Shown here piece by piece: positions 4,480 to 45,238 of a DNA stretch of 49,347 nucleotides (positions within the stretch are counted from its first letter, which is position 1; each line of letters begins with the position of its first letter). Location: assembly GCA_903958625.1 (NCBI GenBank), contig CAJBTU010000425.1:1-49347 (forward strand), in the 5' to 3' direction. The notes under the pieces were generated by a model that was given only the letters and a program-made list of their open reading frames with translations, had not been told where the DNA came from and did not search any database. The DNA is from an uncultured Ignavibacteriota bacterium (GTDB lineage: Bacteria; Bacteroidota; Ignavibacteria; UBA10030; UBA8401). A program made the position numbers and the translations under genes.

Positions 4480-4562
4480 GTAGCAACTGCCGGCAATCTT
4501 CCGCGGGGAATTATTTTACTGAATTACTGATGTTACGCAAAAAGTACGAGAGTAGTAAAGAA

Positions 4563-4676
4563 TGGTTCGACGCGGCACAACAACCATGTTCATCCTGAGC
4601 AAATGCCGATGTTGTTTATCGGCATGCGCCGAAGGATGAACTAAGATATTAATGTTGCGCCTTGCTCACCATGAAC
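4563..4676. repeat. Nested REP-like palindromic element
   Basis: Outer TGGTTCGAC-GC-[GGCACAACA...TGTTGCGCC]-TT-GCTCACCATGAAC. Inner (4588-4641, opposite orientation) GTTCATCCTGAGC-AA-[ATGCCGAT-7nt-ATCGGCAT]-GC-GCCGAAGGATGAAC. Lies between convergent genes. Confidence 0.75.
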
Positions 4677-4681
4677 AGTAT

Positions 4682-5026
4682 TTATGATTTGTGTAACATT
4701 ACTGAATAATCCATTTCCCGTAATTTTTTCGATACATTGGCGCGCTGGTCCCCCTGGATCTCGATCATTCCGTTCTTCACCGTCCCTCCTGCTCCGCAAT
4801 GCTGTTTTAAAATGCGGGCGATCTCTTCGAGCGTGTCCGGATTATGCTGGAGTCCTGATACAACGGTAACGCTCTTTCCTTTCCTGCCGGCAGTTTCCAG
4901 CGAAACGCGGACAGCATTTCCCTTTCCGGAGTGCGTTTTTTTCACTTCCGTCTTCTCTTCGCGGTGTTTTACCCGTTCGGATTCGGAGAGCAATTGTTCA
5001 AGATCCGATAATGACTGGAATTTCAT
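4682..5026 (-). CDS. yciH: Translation initiation factor SUI1/YciH family protein (114 aa)
   Basis: VRVSLETAGRKGKSVTVVSG and CGAGGTVKNGMIEIQGD SUI1 motifs. Start reassigned to ATG 5026, which overlaps the hrpB stop (ATGA). Confidence 0.88.
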   Translation of the reverse strand: MKFQSLSDLEQLLSESERVKHREEKTEVKKTHSGKGNAVRVSLETAGRKGKSVTVVSGLQHNPDTLEEIARILKQHCGAGGTVKNGMIEIQGDQRANVSKKLREMDYSVMLHKS

Positions 5027-17406: not shown

Positions 17407-17479
<73 letters not shown>

Positions 17480-17483
17480 CAAG

Positions 17484-17729
17484 ATGTGTTTCGTATATAT
17501 TCTTCAAAGCATTAAATCCGGCAAATTCTATGTTGGTCATGCCTTGGATCTTCCAAAGAGGCTCAACCATCATAATAGCGGATATTCCAAGTCGACAAAA
17601 TCAGGTGTTCCGTGGGAAATCGTTCATACCGAAGAATACCAAACTCGATCTGATGCGATGAAGAGAGAATATGAAATTAAGGCAATGAAAAGCAGAACAT
17701 ACATCCTTCATCTGATAAAAAAGAATTAA
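17484..17729 (+). CDS. Small stand-alone GIY-YIG nuclease (81 aa)
   Basis: FVYILQS...FYVG, KRLNHHNSG, TKSGVPW, AMKREYEIK; starts 4 nt after the tRNA. Confidence 0.88.
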   Translation: MCFVYILQSIKSGKFYVGHALDLPKRLNHHNSGYSKSTKSGVPWEIVHTEEYQTRSDAMKREYEIKAMKSRTYILHLIKKN

Positions 17730-17730
17730 T

Positions 17731-17841
17731 AGCTGGGAGACCTTCCCGATGTCCCGGCAACGGGACATCGGGAAGGTCAGCGGTTGAATGTTTTTTTGTG
17801 AAATCCCGCTCTGCGGGGTTCGATCCCGCTACGGTCCACAA
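17731..17841 (+). repeat. Degenerate tRNA-Ala copy with palindrome insertions, ending in a 25-bp direct repeat of the tRNA 3' end
   Basis: AGCTGGGAGA + 18-bp GCAA-capped hairpin (17739-17778) + AGCGGTT + insert containing CCCGC-TCT-GCGGG + GGTTCGATCCCGCTACGGTCCACAA (17817-17841, identical to 17458-17482). Confidence 0.85.
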
Positions 17842-17871
17842 CGTTTTGATCATCAAATAAGAACTATTGTT

Positions 17872-19122: not shown

Positions 19123-21408
19123 TTATCTTAAGAGCAGGGCAAGTTGTGCCGGCCTTTTCTTTTTAGCCGCTTTCCTTTTCTCCGTAACGGACTGCAGATC
19201 GAGTTCTTCCTTCAATACCTCCATTGAGTATCCCAGGGGCTGCAGCAGTGTCTCCGCCGCTTCCAGCACCATCTCGGAGTATTTCTCCGCATCGTAGCCG
19301 TCATCCAACGCATACAACGCCAGCGGTTTCGCTTTCATCGGGTCTTTCTTTCCGGTTGAATCCGTAATGATATACTGAATGCTTTCCCCCGCCATCAATT
19401 GAACGCCCGCTTCCGCAAGAGTCTGCGACACGATGGCGCTGACGCTGTTGTTCTCATATTCAAACGGATCTTTCGAAATGCGGCGCCGGATCACCAGTTC
19501 AAACGGTGAAACATTCCCTTGTTTCAGATCATTGATGTATTGTTTCGTCACTTTCAGCACTTCCGGCACCAGCATGTTCACGCCGGCAATATCATCCGCG
19601 CCGGACAGCACTTTCAGCATCGCTTGCTGCGCTTTCTGAACGTACTTCGGCACATCTTTTCTCCGCACCTCAATTCCCCGTACCTTGAATTCATTGGTAT
19701 CATATTGACCAACATAGCGTGTTGCCGTCGGAATTTCTTCGTCCATTTTTGAGACGGGAAACAATATCCACTTATATATTCCTTCAACGGATATTTTGAT
19801 GCCTGTTCCCTCTTCGATCTTTTTGGCAAGCAAAGCATACTCTTCGTGTGTGGCACCCTGCTTCTTCAGCCAGACACAATCAATGATCGCGTGGATTAGT
19901 TCAAAACCATCCTGCTCGGCGATCTCCTTGGCGCGAAGCAGCGTATCACGTGCAAACGCGTTCACCGATTCATGCGCTTCTATCCTGCCGAGGCGCGATT
20001 TTTTAAAGCCGAGATAACCGAAGCAGGTTACCAGTATCCATTTCAACGCGGATTGTTTATTGTCGTACCTCTTCCGCACTTCTTCCGTTGGCGCATCCGC
20101 TCTCAGTTCCTTATACCGCGCCCGTTTTTTGATGATCGGATCCAATGTTGCCGGGACCAATCCTCTCCGTTTTTCGCAGATGCGGAAACCTATCTCGGGG
20201 ACAAGATGCCGGGAATCAGGACAGCAGGGACAATCCAGCGTTTCGGTGGAGATATTATTGTTTCTCATGATCGTCGGATACATCGAAGCAAAATCCAGTT
20301 CCGCCACCTGTTCGTGATATCCGATCTCCGGCATAAAGTGAAGTCCGCCCCTGTCCGACTTCAACAATGTTGTCAGCGATTTGAACGCCTCCTTGATCGG
20401 ACGCTTGTACGGAACAAGAACATTGTTCCTGTACGTCCACGATATCTGCATGGATGACAATGCTGAACCGATGCTCGTGCGCGCCTGCTGCTGCACACCT
20501 ATCTGCGACATTCGTGCAAGGTCATACAATCCGTCAAGATCCCCCTCATTGATAATGAATGAATTCTCCTTGTCCAGATGCCAGCGGCCGGAGAGGGCGA
20601 ACGTGCCGTCCCTCTGCTTTACTTGTCCATAGGAAAAATAGGTGATCGCTTTTGAGAACATGAATCCTGCACCCGCATCACGGTTAAGATAGAGCGGCAT
20701 GTTCAGTTCCGATGCGGTCTGCTGCAGCATCGGCAGCAATGTTGCATCGCCATACTCGGTCAGAATTACGTCCGGATCGTATTTGTAAAGGTAATAGTTT
20801 ATCTGATTGATCAGTTCCCGCGGCGATTCCTGCTGCAGTACGCTCTTTCTTCCCTCCACTTCTATTTCGATCTCCAGATAACGCTGATACTTCGGCGCCA
20901 GAAGTTTTGCCGAAGGAGAAAGTGTCATAACCGTCAGAGGCGGAACATTATACGTTTCCGCCTCCATTCTTTCAAGCAGATTCCACGACTTCAGAAGACC
21001 GTTCTCTATCGTATATTCTCCGTACGCCAGCGGAAATAACTGTGTCGTATAGTAGAACATCTGCACCGCTTTGATGTCGGCATTGTAGAATTGATAGAAC
21101 TTAAATTGTTTGGAAAGCGTCCTTACAGTCTTTTGAAGCAGGTTGGGATTGTGAACATGTACGGCATAAACGTCAACATCGTTATTGGAGAGCAGATCCA
21201 TCTTCGCCGTCTTTGTCATCGTCACTTGATACGGAAGACGAAGAAGGACTTCGCGAAGCGTGACCGCTTCCTGCTCCGAAATGTGCAGATAGAAGCAGGG
21301 GGCAAAAGGAAATGCTGTCTTATGCCGTTTCCCGTCGGCATCGATGATCCAGACCGTCATCCCGGTATCGTTCACATACGCGTCAAACAGCCATCCTTGC
21401 AGTGTCAT
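19123..21408 (-). CDS. Family B DNA polymerase, archaeal PolB2/Dpo2-like
   Basis: Motif A LDFASMYP, motif B KQSALKWILVTCFGYLG, variant motif C HAIIDCVW, KVRGIEVRRKD, CPCC...C insertion. ATGA overlap with the upstream gene. Confidence 0.88.
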   Translation of the reverse strand: MTLQGWLFDAYVNDTGMTVWIIDADGKRHKTAFPFAPCFYLHISEQEAVTLREVLLRLPYQVTMTKTAKMDLLSNNDVDVYAVHVHNPNLLQKTVRTLSKQFKFYQFYNADIKAVQMFYYTTQLFPLAYGEYTIENGLLKSWNLLERMEAETYNVPPLTVMTLSPSAKLLAPKYQRYLEIEIEVEGRKSVLQQESPRELINQINYYLYKYDPDVILTEYGDATLLPMLQQTASELNMPLYLNRDAGAGFMFSKAITYFSYGQVKQRDGTFALSGRWHLDKENSFIINEGDLDGLYDLARMSQIGVQQQARTSIGSALSSMQISWTYRNNVLVPYKRPIKEAFKSLTTLLKSDRGGLHFMPEIGYHEQVAELDFASMYPTIMRNNNISTETLDCPCCPDSRHLVPEIGFRICEKRRGLVPATLDPIIKKRARYKELRADAPTEEVRKRYDNKQSALKWILVTCFGYLGFKKSRLGRIEAHESVNAFARDTLLRAKEIAEQDGFELIHAIIDCVWLKKQGATHEEYALLAKKIEEGTGIKISVEGIYKWILFPVSKMDEEIPTATRYVGQYDTNEFKVRGIEVRRKDVPKYVQKAQQAMLKVLSGADDIAGVNMLVPEVLKVTKQYINDLKQGNVSPFELVIRRRISKDPFEYENNSVSAIVSQTLAEAGVQLMAGESIQYIITDSTGKKDPMKAKPLALYALDDGYDAEKYSEMVLEAAETLLQPLGYSMEVLKEELDLQSVTEKRKAAKKKRPAQLALLLR

Positions 21409-42035: not shown

Positions 42036-43547
42036 TTATCTCTGCACAGAGCTGTTGAACAATTTCACTTTCATCATTCCGACATAGACAAGAAACGCTG
42101 CAATAAATCCCACAAACCATGCATAGCTATAGAGATGCATGAAGAACGAACCAACCATTGCCGGATCGATCACAGAAATTGTTCCAAGAAAACCGGGAAT
42201 ATTTGGAATAACTCCTACGATGAGAGCAACAACTGCCGCGCTATTAAATCCCTTAGTATACGTATATTCACCGTTCGTACGGTAAAGATCCTGAACGTTC
42301 AGATTTGTCTTCCGGACAACAAAATAATCAGCGATCAATATTCCGCCTATCGGTCCGAGCAGCGCTGAATAACCGACAAGCCAGGTAAAGATGTAGCCGC
42401 TCGGATCAGCGACAAGTTTCCACGGCTGGATCAGGATACCAATTATGCCAGTGATCAATCCGCCGATCCGAAACGTGATCTTCGATGGCCAAATGTTGGA
42501 AAAATCGTTTGCCGGACTTACAACATTTGCAGCAAGATTCGTTGCTAATGTTGCGAGGCAGAGTGCGAACAAGGAAACTGCAAGGACGATGGGATTGGTG
42601 AACTTGGTTATCAAAATAACCGGATCCCATATCGGAAATCCGCCGAAGATAACGATGGTTGCCGATGTTACTGCAACACCGATAAATGCATACAATCCCA
42701 TTGTCAACGGCAAGCCAAGTAATTGTCCGAGCATTTGACTCCGTTGCGTCTTTGAATACCGTGTGAAGTCAGGAATATTGAGTGATAAAGTTGCCCAAAA
42801 ACCGATCATACCGGTAAGCGAAGGAAAAAATACCATCCAAAATTGTCCTTCTTTGATTCCGCCTGGTGCAAACTGCGACGGCTGCGAAAGCATCGGACCG
42901 AATCCGCCGGCCTGCTGATACGCCCACCCGAGCAATACTAATCCAAGAACAATTAATAGAGGTGCTTTGATATCCAAAAGAAAACGTATGGAATCGATTC
43001 CCTTATAAATAACAAACATGTTGATGCTCCAAAAAAAGATAAAGCATCCGAACTGTGCTATGTTGATTCCGGCAGACCAAACAGGTAATGCATCCCACGC
43101 AGGGATGGAAATTGTAATAATTTTGTAGATGGCCCAGCCGCCGATCCACGTTTGGATTCCGAACCAACCGCAGGCAACAAACGCTCGCAGAAGTGCAGGA
43201 ATATTCGCACCATGAACGCCGAACGATGCGCGGCAATAAACGGGAAATGGAATTCCATATTTTGTTCCGGCATGTGCGTTGAGGATCATCGGAACCAGGA
43301 CAATAAGATTTCCGAGAAATACCGTTATCACCGCTTGGTACCAATTCATTCCTTCAGCGATCAATCCAGACGCAAGCATATAGGTTGGAATACAGGCCGA
43401 CATTGATATCCACAGTGCGGCTATGTTATACGTCCCCCATTTCCGTTCTGCCTTCGTCGTCGGAGCCAGATCGTGATTGAGAAGCGGACTGTTCCCGACT
43501 GATATCAGATCAGTCTCGACGATTTCTGCTGAAAAAAGTGTTTTCAT
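42036..43547 (-). CDS. NCS1 nucleobase:cation symporter
   Basis: GTKYGIPFPV, CGWFGIQTWIGG, WATLSLNIPDFTRY, NLAANVVSPAND. Confidence 0.92.
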   Translation of the reverse strand: MKTLFSAEIVETDLISVGNSPLLNHDLAPTTKAERKWGTYNIAALWISMSACIPTYMLASGLIAEGMNWYQAVITVFLGNLIVLVPMILNAHAGTKYGIPFPVYCRASFGVHGANIPALLRAFVACGWFGIQTWIGGWAIYKIITISIPAWDALPVWSAGINIAQFGCFIFFWSINMFVIYKGIDSIRFLLDIKAPLLIVLGLVLLGWAYQQAGGFGPMLSQPSQFAPGGIKEGQFWMVFFPSLTGMIGFWATLSLNIPDFTRYSKTQRSQMLGQLLGLPLTMGLYAFIGVAVTSATIVIFGGFPIWDPVILITKFTNPIVLAVSLFALCLATLATNLAANVVSPANDFSNIWPSKITFRIGGLITGIIGILIQPWKLVADPSGYIFTWLVGYSALLGPIGGILIADYFVVRKTNLNVQDLYRTNGEYTYTKGFNSAAVVALIVGVIPNIPGFLGTISVIDPAMVGSFFMHLYSYAWFVGFIAAFLVYVGMMKVKLFNSSVQR

Positions 43548-43727
43548 AGATCCGTTTATATTGTGGCTGAAAAAATGATATTCGATGTCCTCGATTTTAT
43601 CGTTTGGTCAAAAATATTTCCCAGTGCTTTATTCGCGGCGAAATAAATATGCCGTGTATCGATGAAAAAGATATACACGGCACAAGTACAGTTTCAATTA
43701 ATTAAAGTTGTTGTTTCCCAAATATTG

Positions 43728-43779
43728 AGATGCTTCGACGCGTCCCGATTGTAAAACATCGGGACTTGCTCAGCATGAC
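43728..43779. repeat. REP-like palindromic element
   Basis: AGATGCTTCGAC-GC-[GTCCCGAT-8nt-ATCGGGAC]-TT-GCTCAGCATGAC. Confidence 0.75.
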
Positions 43780-43855
43780 TTATCTTATTTAATTTTAAAA
43801 TCTTATTATATTGAAACGGCACTAGTAATTAGCGGATAAAAATGACCCATGAAAC

Positions 43856-45238
43856 CTAAATCATTCCATTGACTTTGTTTCGTTTTACAAATTTTCCATA
43901 TCCGGGTTTCACGTTGATTTGGTTGTTCTCAACCGCAACCTGACCGCGCATCAATACTGATTTCACCTTTCCTTTTATCTTCCATCCTTCGTATCCGGAA
44001 TAGTCCACATTCATGTGATGCGTCTTGGCCGACAGCGTATGCTCTTCGTTCGGATCGACAATGATGATATCCGCGTCTGAACCAACAGTCACACATCCTT
44101 TTTTCGGGAACATACCGAAGATCTTGGCAGCATTGGTTGACGTAACCTCAACGAATTTATTGAGGGATATCCGTCCCTTATTTACACCTTCTGAAAAGAG
44201 CAATTCCATTCTGCTCTCAATACCGGGAGCACCGTTCGGGATCTTGGAGAAATCATCTTTGCCCATCAACTTTTGTTCCCATGTGAACGGACAATGATCC
44301 GTGGCGACGACCTGTACTGTTCCCTGATTGAGTGCACCCCATAATGCTTCCTGATCTTTTTTCTGGCGAAGCGGCGGAGACATCACCCATTTTGCTCCTT
44401 CAAAGTTCTGTTCGTAGAGCGATGCGTCGAGAATCAGATATTGGATGCAAGTTTCACCGTACACTTTTTGGTTTCGCTGCGCAACACGGCGCACCTGATT
44501 AATTGCACCTTCACACGTCATATGAACGATGTATGACGGAACTCCTGTGTAGTACGCCATATCGGAAAAGCGTCCGGATGCTTCTGATTCTGTAATCTCA
44601 GGCTGGGAAAGATAGTGATAGACCGGCGCTAATTTCCCTTCCGCACGATGCTTGGCGACAAGAAAATCGATCACATCTCCATTCGTGGCATGCACTGTAA
44701 CCATGCCACCCTGTTTCTTCACTTCCTGCATCAGTCCTACCATTTGGCGATCGTCGATCATCAAGGCACCTTTGTAAGCCATAAAAGTCTTAAAAGAGGT
44801 GATCCCTTCTTCGTTCACCATTTTGGCAATTTCCGCTTTTGTACTTTCATTGAAATCAGTCACCGCCATATGGAATGAATAGTCGCACGCGGCTTTTCCG
44901 TTCGATCTTCCCTGCCACGCTTCAAGCGCGTTGTATAACGATTTGCCCTGGGTCTGCAGAACAAAGTCGATCACCATTGTTGTTCCGCCGAACAGTGCTG
45001 CGCTTGTACCTGTAGCGTAATTATCGCATGAGAATGTACCCATGAACGGCATGTCGAGATGAACATGCGGATCGATACCGCCGGGCATGACAAGTTTCCC
45101 TGTCGCATCAATGGTCTTATCCGCTTTTACCTGAAGATTTTTTCCAATGAGGGAAACAGTCTCTCCTTCTACGAAAATATCGGCTATAAAATCTTCATCT
45201 GCAGTGATGATTCTTCCATTTTTGATTAATACTGACAT
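43856..45238 (-). CDS. hydA: Dihydropyrimidinase
   Basis: PGGIDPHVH, SFKTFMAYK, VHATNG, IVHMT, ATDHCPF; start reassigned to ATG 45238. Confidence 0.93.
   Translation of the reverse strand: MSVLIKNGRIITADEDFIADIFVEGETVSLIGKNLQVKADKTIDATGKLVMPGGIDPHVHLDMPFMGTFSCDNYATGTSAALFGGTTMVIDFVLQTQGKSLYNALEAWQGRSNGKAACDYSFHMAVTDFNESTKAEIAKMVNEEGITSFKTFMAYKGALMIDDRQMVGLMQEVKKQGGMVTVHATNGDVIDFLVAKHRAEGKLAPVYHYLSQPEITESEASGRFSDMAYYTGVPSYIVHMTCEGAINQVRRVAQRNQKVYGETCIQYLILDASLYEQNFEGAKWVMSPPLRQKKDQEALWGALNQGTVQVVATDHCPFTWEQKLMGKDDFSKIPNGAPGIESRMELLFSEGVNKGRISLNKFVEVTSTNAAKIFGMFPKKGCVTVGSDADIIIVDPNEEHTLSAKTHHMNVDYSGYEGWKIKGKVKSVLMRGQVAVENNQINVKPGYGKFVKRNKVNGMI

Follow-up and report, generated by a model that had tools for sequence, protein, structure and literature searches.

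SsnA of Neisseria meningitidis, a GIY-YIG protein of 94 aa, binds the hairpin repeat NTS only when the DNA is single-stranded, cutting a few nucleotides upstream of it, with the orientation of NTS set by a conserved flank, and ssnA homologues (CDD cd10448, GIY-YIG_unchar_3) are flanked by related hairpins, SRM, in many phyla (Chenal et al., Nat Commun 2025, PMC11893778). Here we describe a family of short hairpins with two conserved boxes, TTCGRC-GC and TT-GCTCA, three copies of which lie in a contig of 49,347 nucleotides from an uncultured Ignavibacteriota bacterium (CAJBTU010000425.1; this whole stretch is called the window below). The source assembly comprises 426 contigs, 3.99 Mb with 46% GC. 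We establish the family and its structure, its behaviour at the DNA level, the insertion polymorphism of its carriers, the exact exchange of its central cassette, and its oriented bracketing of small GIY-YIG genes. The hairpins are probably the DNA sites of the bracketed nuclease, in a sister of the Ssn system; binding, cleavage and nuclease-driven mobility are what we infer from this arrangement.

Other small repeats invite comparison as well. Repetitive extragenic palindromic sequences (REP/REPIN) and their REP-associated tyrosine transposases (RAYT) resemble the present system in that the repeats are intergenic imperfect palindromes with multiple sub-families per genome, presumed to work as folded single-stranded DNA, and that a single-copy enzyme gene is flanked by inverted repeats; they differ in enzyme class, and REPs lack a fixed internal loop bearing an exchangeable cassette. 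The small dispersed repeats (SDR) of heterocyst-forming cyanobacteria, work by Elhai and colleagues from 2008, reportedly have a variable palindromic centre and nest in one another. With the present hairpins they share their very small size, conserved outer parts, variable palindromic centre and mutual nesting; sequence and phyla are different, and no enzyme partner is known to have been proposed for the SDR.

Grammar and distribution of the hairpins

Each element runs from an outer stem P1 (4–8 bp) through TTCGRC-GC, a variable inner hairpin P2 and TT-GCTCA to the closing strand P1' and a conserved TGAMC. In the copy at 43730–43779 (forward strand; parts assigned from fold and sequence), P1 ATGC (43730–43733) pairs with P1' GCAT (43773–43776). 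The box TTCGACGC (43734–43741) is followed by P2 GTCCCGAT (43742–43749), the loop tgtaaaac (43750–43757) and P2' ATCGGGAC (43758–43765), and the box TTGCTCA (43766–43772) leads into P1' and a conserved GAC (43777–43779). The same reading applied to a second forward-strand copy at 4562–4676 pairs P1 ATGG (4562–4565) with P1' CCAT (4669–4672), and P2 GGCACAAC (4574–4581) with P2' GTTGCGCC (4654–4661), around the boxes TTCGACGC (4566–4573) and TTGCTCA (4662–4668), and ends in GAAC (4673–4676). Its loop holds the third copy in the opposite orientation (4589–4640, minus strand; sequence and fold), which reads TTCATCC TTCGGCGC ATGCCGAT aaacaac ATCGGCAT TTGCTCA GGATGAA on its own strand. An initial annotation of the window, made from its sequence alone, had recognised these three elements by identical junctions around different stems and cargo. 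All three are present where it placed them, and they are true copies of a mobile, gene-less repeat family that occurs in many bacterial phyla.

A short form of the pattern matches twice in the window against 0.01 expected, and the exact expression of the initial annotation, TTCG[AG]CGC-N10-100-TTGCTCA on both strands, has 39 sites in the whole genome. Relaxing it to TTCGRC...GCTCA with a P1 of at least 4 bp gives 55 sites, compared with five for reversed and four for scrambled boxes. Of 39 likely-true copies, 36 bear an inner hairpin, and 33 of these have the junction dinucleotides GC..TT; the dispersed copies with conserved junctions that the initial annotation had proposed to look for genome-wide do exist. 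Beyond GCTCA, these likely-true copies carry T at +4 (38/38), G at +5 (36/38) and A at +6 (34/38), while the would-be pairing partners of this TGA flank on the 5' side are variable, and the one-sided conservation gives the element a polarity. The stems are conserved as pairings: P1 and P2 pair better than in all 500 arm shuffles of a covariation test, CG<->GC and TA<->CG switches occur in the outer stem among copies, and single-strand DNA folds of the elements return the expected two-stem hairpins (z = -2.9 to -6.1). Minimal cores without P2 (TTCGAC-NNN-GCTCA) are also present in the genome.

Covarying stems and a conserved internal loop are features that a structured RNA acting after transcription would share, be it a k-turn-like protein-binding motif, a terminator or stabiliser, or a small RNA (sRNA) family. 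The position of the elements suits such an RNA too, as they lie between genes, often just past stop codons: 40 of the 55 sites are intergenic, though a crude gene caller assigns 90% of the genome to coding sequence, and the 15 'genic' sites are mostly chance matches or spurious read-through open reading frames (ORFs). By our own reading of the sequence, the reverse-strand loop may be written as a k-turn-like U-GA/GYC-GA. The elements show no preferred orientation, however, since nine have the same sense as co-directional neighbour genes and 11 the opposite, and the k-turn reading of the reverse strand finds no support in these numbers. Inner copies are moreover inverted within outer ones, and balanced orientation together with inverted nesting is more in keeping with an element that acts as DNA than with a strand-specific RNA. 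Presence and absence at orthologous sites and the replacement of whole cargos between near-identical arms (both described below) also speak against an RNA, as does the lack of any Rfam 15 family at gathering score in the window, with only chance-level matches at E<=10 in 43500–43900. The runs that hold the locus are DNA metagenomes only. An RNA identity for the family is, in our judgement, quite improbable.

Among 41 relatives, short-pattern copies number between 0 and 26. The highest counts fall within the genus (G000, 26; G016, 21; G007, 20; G011, 18), and other families of the order have 0–3, which is the chance level. A cross-phylum scan with TTCGRCGC-N10-40-TTGCTCA-SSRTGA, one genome per species, gave at least 120 loci. 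Among the 127 matches listed, about 40 have both stems, and the groups represented are Alphaproteobacteria (Stellaceae, with many copies), Acidobacteriota, Bacteroidota/Chitinophagaceae, Ignavibacteria, Planctomycetota, Omnitrophota, Verrucomicrobiota, Clostridia and Fibrobacter. Judged by these matches, the hairpin family is pan-bacterial.

Small GIY-YIG genes between hairpin copies

At least ten relatives (G023, G013, G004, G015, G008, G016, G006, G011, G021 and G024) carry a small GIY-YIG ORF of 99–115 aa bracketed by the hairpins in a fixed arrangement, with a reversed element upstream (TCATCC-TGAGYAA-hairpin-GCRYCGAA-GGATGA) and a forward element downstream (TCATCC-TTCGAC-GC-hairpin-TT-GCTCA-GGATGA). 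The ORF consensus is AWVYIV.CSDGSYY.GST..LEQRI.DHN..RYEGYTSSRLP ... WSRAKKEALM, and in G004 and G015 the frame extends into the downstream element (...SSFDSA...). Hairpins were present at all four loci that had been selected by GIY-YIG score alone. Further afield, a small GIY-YIG ORF occurs at five of 120 loci among the matches listed, in every case with a core hairpin no more than about 250 bp away, where by a rough estimate chance would supply fewer than 0.1. These five belong to Rhodothermales, Ignavibacteriae, Planctomycetes, Rubricoccaceae and Fibrobacter; on the Rhodothermales contig the gene lies between two hairpin copies, and on the Planctomycetes contig a hairpin separates the gene from a tRNA end.

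Pfam finds only GIY-YIG in the small proteins, and NCBIfam has no specific family for them. In the Protein Data Bank (PDB), the bracketed clade matches the UPF0213 structures 1ZG2 and 1YWL best (~1e-9 to 1e-11), whereas an 'FTKRY'-type protein (L036) matches them at only 1e-3. The partner enzymes are thus most likely a clade of single-domain GIY-YIG proteins of about 100 residues of the UPF0213/YhbQ type, and the PDB matches suggest that this clade is a sister to Ssn. Structures of UPF0213/YhbQ proteins have been solved, and to our knowledge they have no established function.

The likeness to Ssn/NTS/SRM is considerable. Both are short intergenic hairpin repeats with tens to hundreds of copies in many phyla, both have a one-sided flank (CGTCAT... 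in NTS, GKTCAT... on the reverse strand of the TTCGRC/GCTCA family), and in both a single-domain GIY-YIG gene of ~95–110 aa has repeats on either side, an arrangement seen here in the ten relatives and in other phyla and absent from the source assembly. The differences lie in design. The TTCGRC/GCTCA family conserves a large internal loop between stems of free sequence rather than the stem, its elements nest and swap cargo, and its partners are mostly UPF0213-like (1ZG2, 1YWL), whereas Ssn is defined as cd10448; an exception is the Ssn-like 'FTKRY' protein of Rhodothermales (L036), which is also flanked by the TTCGRC/GCTCA core. The SRM motif, HGTCWYN(0-2)YYVSBRHN(0-5)WNVSBRGN(0-2)RNCYNB, matches at 11 sites in the genome and at 13 in the reversed-genome control, with no overlap between those 11 sites and the 55 TTCGRC..GCTCA elements. 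Because this motif fails, and because conservation is loop-based, the elements nest and the partner is UPF0213-like, we do not file the family as a member of SRM. Literature searches for the TTCGRC/GCTCA core, or for a link between UPF0213/YhbQ/COG2827 and hairpins, returned no description of either, the Ssn paper being the only relevant one.

Two further small GIY-YIG genes were observed in G000. One, of a second, 'GFTKRY' type (84 aa; C3:3050-3450, L008), has on both sides hairpins whose outer frame is NTS-like (upstream, CATTCC-GAGCGAAG-hairpin-CGAAGCGA-GGAATC; downstream, GATTCC-TCG-hairpin-CTC-GGAATGAC), so that the genome holds at least three pairings of a mini-GIY-YIG gene with a hairpin. 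The other, a third small gene (C64:3200-3900, L007), lies about 150 bp past a tRNA and is flanked by the direct repeats CAATCCTGCCAGGTCCGG...ATTGACGAGTGTGATAC...TAAGCTTGGCATTTTTATTTTA; its GGTCCGGAAGGAAGCA stretch has what we take to be a resemblance to the conserved part of the signal recognition particle (4.5S) RNA.

Mobilisation of a REP/REPIN family by a RAYT (a Y1 tyrosine transposase) would need a different gene. The initial annotation was right that the window has none; Y1_Tnp matches at four places elsewhere in the genome, strongly at two (C195:19240-19581 and C108:2329-2667, with proteins of ~150–190 aa), and REPs are likewise intergenic imperfect hairpins with a conserved flank. Yet none of the Y1 matches has a complete core (paired TTCGRCGC and TTGCTCA) within 1.2 kb, the nearest thing being one stray reverse half-box that adjoins the weak C171 match. 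Element and Y1 numbers are also unrelated across the 41 genomes: G007 has 20 elements and only a 6.9e-5 Y1 match and G001 has 13 elements and one match, whereas elements are few and Y1 matches many in G003 (1/11), G004 (2/10) and G015 (3/12). With neither adjacency nor a correlation in copy number, the RAYT was rejected as driver and does not explain the family; a RAYT that fully accounts for the family, which the initial annotation had named as fatal to its own proposal, is not what the genomes show, and we find such an origin scarcely credible.

Carriers, insertion and cassette exchange

Both window loci lie in larger units that behave as insertions. The hairpin at 43730–43779 is contained in a carrier of 142 bp (type 2; 43684–43825, forward strand as are all parts of both carriers) whose terminal inverted repeats (TIRs), identified in a six-copy alignment, are AAGTACAGTTTCAAT on the left (43684–43698, diverged) and ATTGAAACGGCACTAG on the right (43810–43825); the ends CYAGTGCYGTTTCAAT...ATTGAAAYGGCACYAG are common to the copies on C109, C169, C240 and C64. 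In the same-genus genome G007, contig C11 aligns to 43300–43683 and 43840–44100 of the window with flanks 88–92% identical, and only 15 bp replace the 142 bp of the carrier. The insertion was made at the 3' foot of a pre-existing terminator-like hairpin shared by both genomes, TGCCGTGTAT...ATACACGGCA (43650–43683). Neither the alignment of copies nor the empty site in G007 reveals a recognisable target duplication for type-2 carriers.

The nested pair is housed in a carrier of another kind (type 1; 176 bp, 4527–4702, delimited by its TIRs and by comparison with empty sites). A TIR-pair search placed its 13-bp TIRs at 4527–4539 (CTGATGTTACGCA) and 4690–4702 (TGTGTAACATTAC), and comparison with each other and with empty sites identified 7-bp target-duplication copies on the left (TGAATTA, 4520–4526) and right (TGAATAA, 4703–4709). 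This carrier sits between a GH9 cellulase gene and an SUI1 gene. The same gene pair lacks the element in G007, G003 and G011, all of the same genus; the empty sites hold a single 7-mer (GACATAA in G003, GGTATAA in G007), and in G009 the site is occupied by another composite. As both window carriers are absent from orthologous sites in the genus, the carriers are insertions. The genome contains 17 type-1 units, CTGATGTTACGCA TIR pairs 107–214 bp apart that house the ATGG sub-family, and their flanks are 7-bp AT-rich direct repeats, perfect in five (including CTTGTAA, TTAGTAA, TTGGTAA and TTATTTA) and matching at 6/7 positions in eight (n=17).

Correia/nemis elements of Neisseria are bacterial miniature inverted-repeat transposable elements (MITEs), and the carriers share much with them: lengths of 107–214 bp, TIRs in both types (CTGATGTTACGCA in type 1, CYAGTGCYGTTTCAAT in type 2), AT-rich targets, a target duplication (7 bp, in type-1 carriers), and presence or absence at orthologous sites among relatives. 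They differ in that no autonomous element with matching ends was found, and in that one central module is shared by two carrier types with unrelated ends, even within a single chimera. The carriers could be nothing more than MITEs that a DDE transposase mobilises in trans, with the central hairpin as a passenger or structural part and the GIY-YIG linkage incidental. The 13-bp TIRs and 7-bp AT-rich duplications of type 1, the single 7-mer at the empty sites of G003 and G007, and the insertion polymorphism among congeners are what that explanation would predict. Nevertheless, the source genome has no longer element with type-1 ends, only chance pairs or truncated copies, and in seven relatives, one of them assembled in 7 contigs, every TIR pair has a spacing of 130–290 bp. 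The type-2 carriers have no target duplication, cargo is exchanged at the core and not at the ends, and the oriented GIY-YIG bracketing is left unexplained. The core grammar is, moreover, common to carriers with unrelated ends, to carrier-less copies and to many phyla, which marks the core as the selected part. We consider a purely transposase-driven family unlikely, but less so than either the RNA or the RAYT explanation. The type-1 duplications do show that at least part of the spread uses a staggered-cut, transposase-like step. No joints of empty-site alleles were seen in lake-water metagenome contigs (runs X1, X5, X6 and X8), which break in the repeats, where depth rises 5–50 fold.

Inside the carriers, the unit of variation is the cargo between the boxes. 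Type-1 carriers with arms 94–98% identical hold either 23 nt (GTCCCGAT...ATCGGGAC) or 88 nt (GGCGCAAC ... inner element ... GTTGCGCC). The copies on C84 and C360, for example, have arms 96% and 98% identical and cargos (88 nt and 23 nt) only ~22% identical, with boundaries precisely at TTCGGCGC| and |TTGCTCA. Near-identical arms around unrelated cargo indicate cassette exchange, not drift, and such discrete, box-delimited swaps make 'cargo at a defined position', the fixed grammar proposed by the initial annotation, a fair description. In copies on C191 and C383 the loop of the 23-nt cargo itself contains another palindrome, and in a chimera (G000 C153:10880-11020) a type-1 CTGATGTTACGCA left arm is joined at the core to a type-2 ATTGAAAYGGCACYAG right arm. 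The inner unit of 4589–4640 also occurs alone or in other carriers, in the source genome and in G003, G007, G008 and G016. Variants of it with extra micro-palindromes, at window positions 4618 and 4630–4631, are found in metagenome contigs (runs X5 and X8) and in G016 (C471, C496 and C528): CCTGCC(T)GCCGGCAGG stands at the stem-loop junction, as does a CCTGCCGGCAGG-type micro-palindrome in G016 and metagenome contigs, and TCCCGAAGGGA-type inserts split the GCG|CCGAA box.

The cargo palindrome is not confined to the core. Palindromes of the form (T)CCCGAY...RTCGGG(A) number 79 in the genome against five in the control, and TCCCGAY...RTCGGGA occurs in the TTCGRC/GCTCA core, in an NTS-like frame (GTCATTYCGAG...CTCGRAATC) and in tRNA-like sequences, among them window 17745–17772. 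The resemblance that the initial annotation saw between the cargo and a hairpin in a pseudo-tRNA is real, CCCGAT/ATCGGG being common to 43742–43765 and 17739–17778. Its further step, that one mechanism inserts palindromes into both, fared less evenly: the palindrome shared by the core, other frames and the tRNA copy is in its favour, the 7-bp duplication of type-1 carriers is against it, and given that duplication more than one mechanism may be at work. Three-level nests were also noted in G000 (C286:1228-1265, C288:3092-3129 and C48:6656-6693), in which an NTS-like frame, GAGATTCCTCG...CTCGGAATGAC, encloses a TCCCGAT/ATCGGGA palindrome and this in turn a minimal reversed core, CACCC-TGAGC-GAA-GTCGAA-GGGTC.

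The pseudo-tRNA belongs to a tRNA/GIY-YIG mini-cassette at 17407–17842, distinct from the TTCGRC/GCTCA family. An intact tRNA-Ala(GGC) (17407–17479; ARAGORN and a local E-value scan, 59.6 bits) is followed after 4 nt by a GIY-YIG ORF of 81 aa (17484–17729) and by a partial second tRNA-Ala copy, which extends from the D-loop AGCTGGGAGA to the 3' end with a 31-nt insert ahead of the T-arm. In this copy a perfect 18-bp hairpin, GACCTTCCCGATGTCCCG gcaa CGGGACATCGGGAAGGTC (17739–17778, forward strand), replaces the anticodon arm. The Rfam scan of the window at gathering threshold listed three tRNAs and missed the one at 17407–17479, probably lost to the speed filter. Adjoining the cassette is a family-B DNA polymerase gene (19123–21408, minus strand, 761 aa, PF00136); family-B polymerases are uncommon in bacterial chromosomes. 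The initial annotation had put forward the GIY-YIG protein of the window as a candidate driver of the hairpins. That gene drops out, lying as it does in a tRNA-lodged cassette without the TTCGRC/GCTCA core, and what survives of the suggestion is the small GIY-YIG class, a candidate partner that is well founded because the hairpins bracket such genes in relatives and other phyla.

Proposed single-strand recognition by a GIY-YIG nuclease

On balance we favour the view that the core, TTCGRC-GC / TT-GCTCA with its TGAMC flank and largely unpaired, is a recognition site for the GIY-YIG protein on folded single-stranded DNA. The full unit of the relatives (reversed hairpin, GIY-YIG gene, forward hairpin) resembles an insertion sequence and is comparable with NTS-ssnA-NTS. 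DNA that becomes single-stranded during replication, repair or uptake would let the element fold. The stems would need only to pair, which would account for their covariation and free sequence, and the protein would read the conserved boxes and cut there or close by. Repair of the cut could copy or exchange the sequence between the boxes, giving cargo swaps, chimeras and hairpins nested within the loops of other hairpins. In the source genome the core modules also travel to new intergenic sites within the two kinds of MITE-like carrier. That cutting at the boxes drives this copying, nesting and exchange is a more tentative proposal than recognition itself.

Several observations weigh against a GIY-YIG partnership. 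In the source assembly, no GIY-YIG gene lies between canonical copies. The closest homologue (C422:2843-3055) shares just 39–46% identity with the bracketed clade, and its core-like hairpins are confined to the upstream side, next to the 3' end of a tRNA. The co-occurrence of element number with GIY-YIG genes that the initial annotation had suggested for comparison was not seen: total GIY-YIG genes in the 41 genomes do not track the number of elements, and G040 and G032 each have 12 genes and no element. These totals are uninformative, because the Pfam model includes UvrC-type and other clades, and other clades go with other hairpins. Adjacency could in part reflect a common preference for intergenic 'dumping grounds'. 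Lastly, the TIRs and 7-bp duplication of type-1 carriers are the signature of a DDE transposase and not of a GIY-YIG or single-strand mechanism.

A bolder and doubtful extension of the recognition model is that mini GIY-YIG proteins of the UPF0213/YhbQ type are hairpin-reading single-strand nucleases that mobilise their own repeats by cutting in the conserved loop. Cutting of this kind would explain nested palindromes, cassette swaps, insertion at the foot of a terminator and palindromes in broken tRNA copies, and it would make the UPF0213 system a GIY-YIG counterpart of IS200/IS605 and REP/RAYT.

For annotation, recognising the family averts the miscalling of its hairpins as terminators, sRNAs or ORFs, and the TTCGAC-NN-GCTCA core is a source of many spurious read-through peptides in predicted proteins. 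If the proposed partnership is true, an enzyme partner would be assigned to a very large class of bacterial intergenic hairpins that now lack annotation, and a substrate to the widespread, orphan UPF0213-like GIY-YIG family. The 2025 discovery of Ssn would then be widened to include a second hairpin design whose centre is modular and exchangeable, and this would bear on the spread of small repeats without a classical transposase and on programmable tools for cutting single-stranded DNA.

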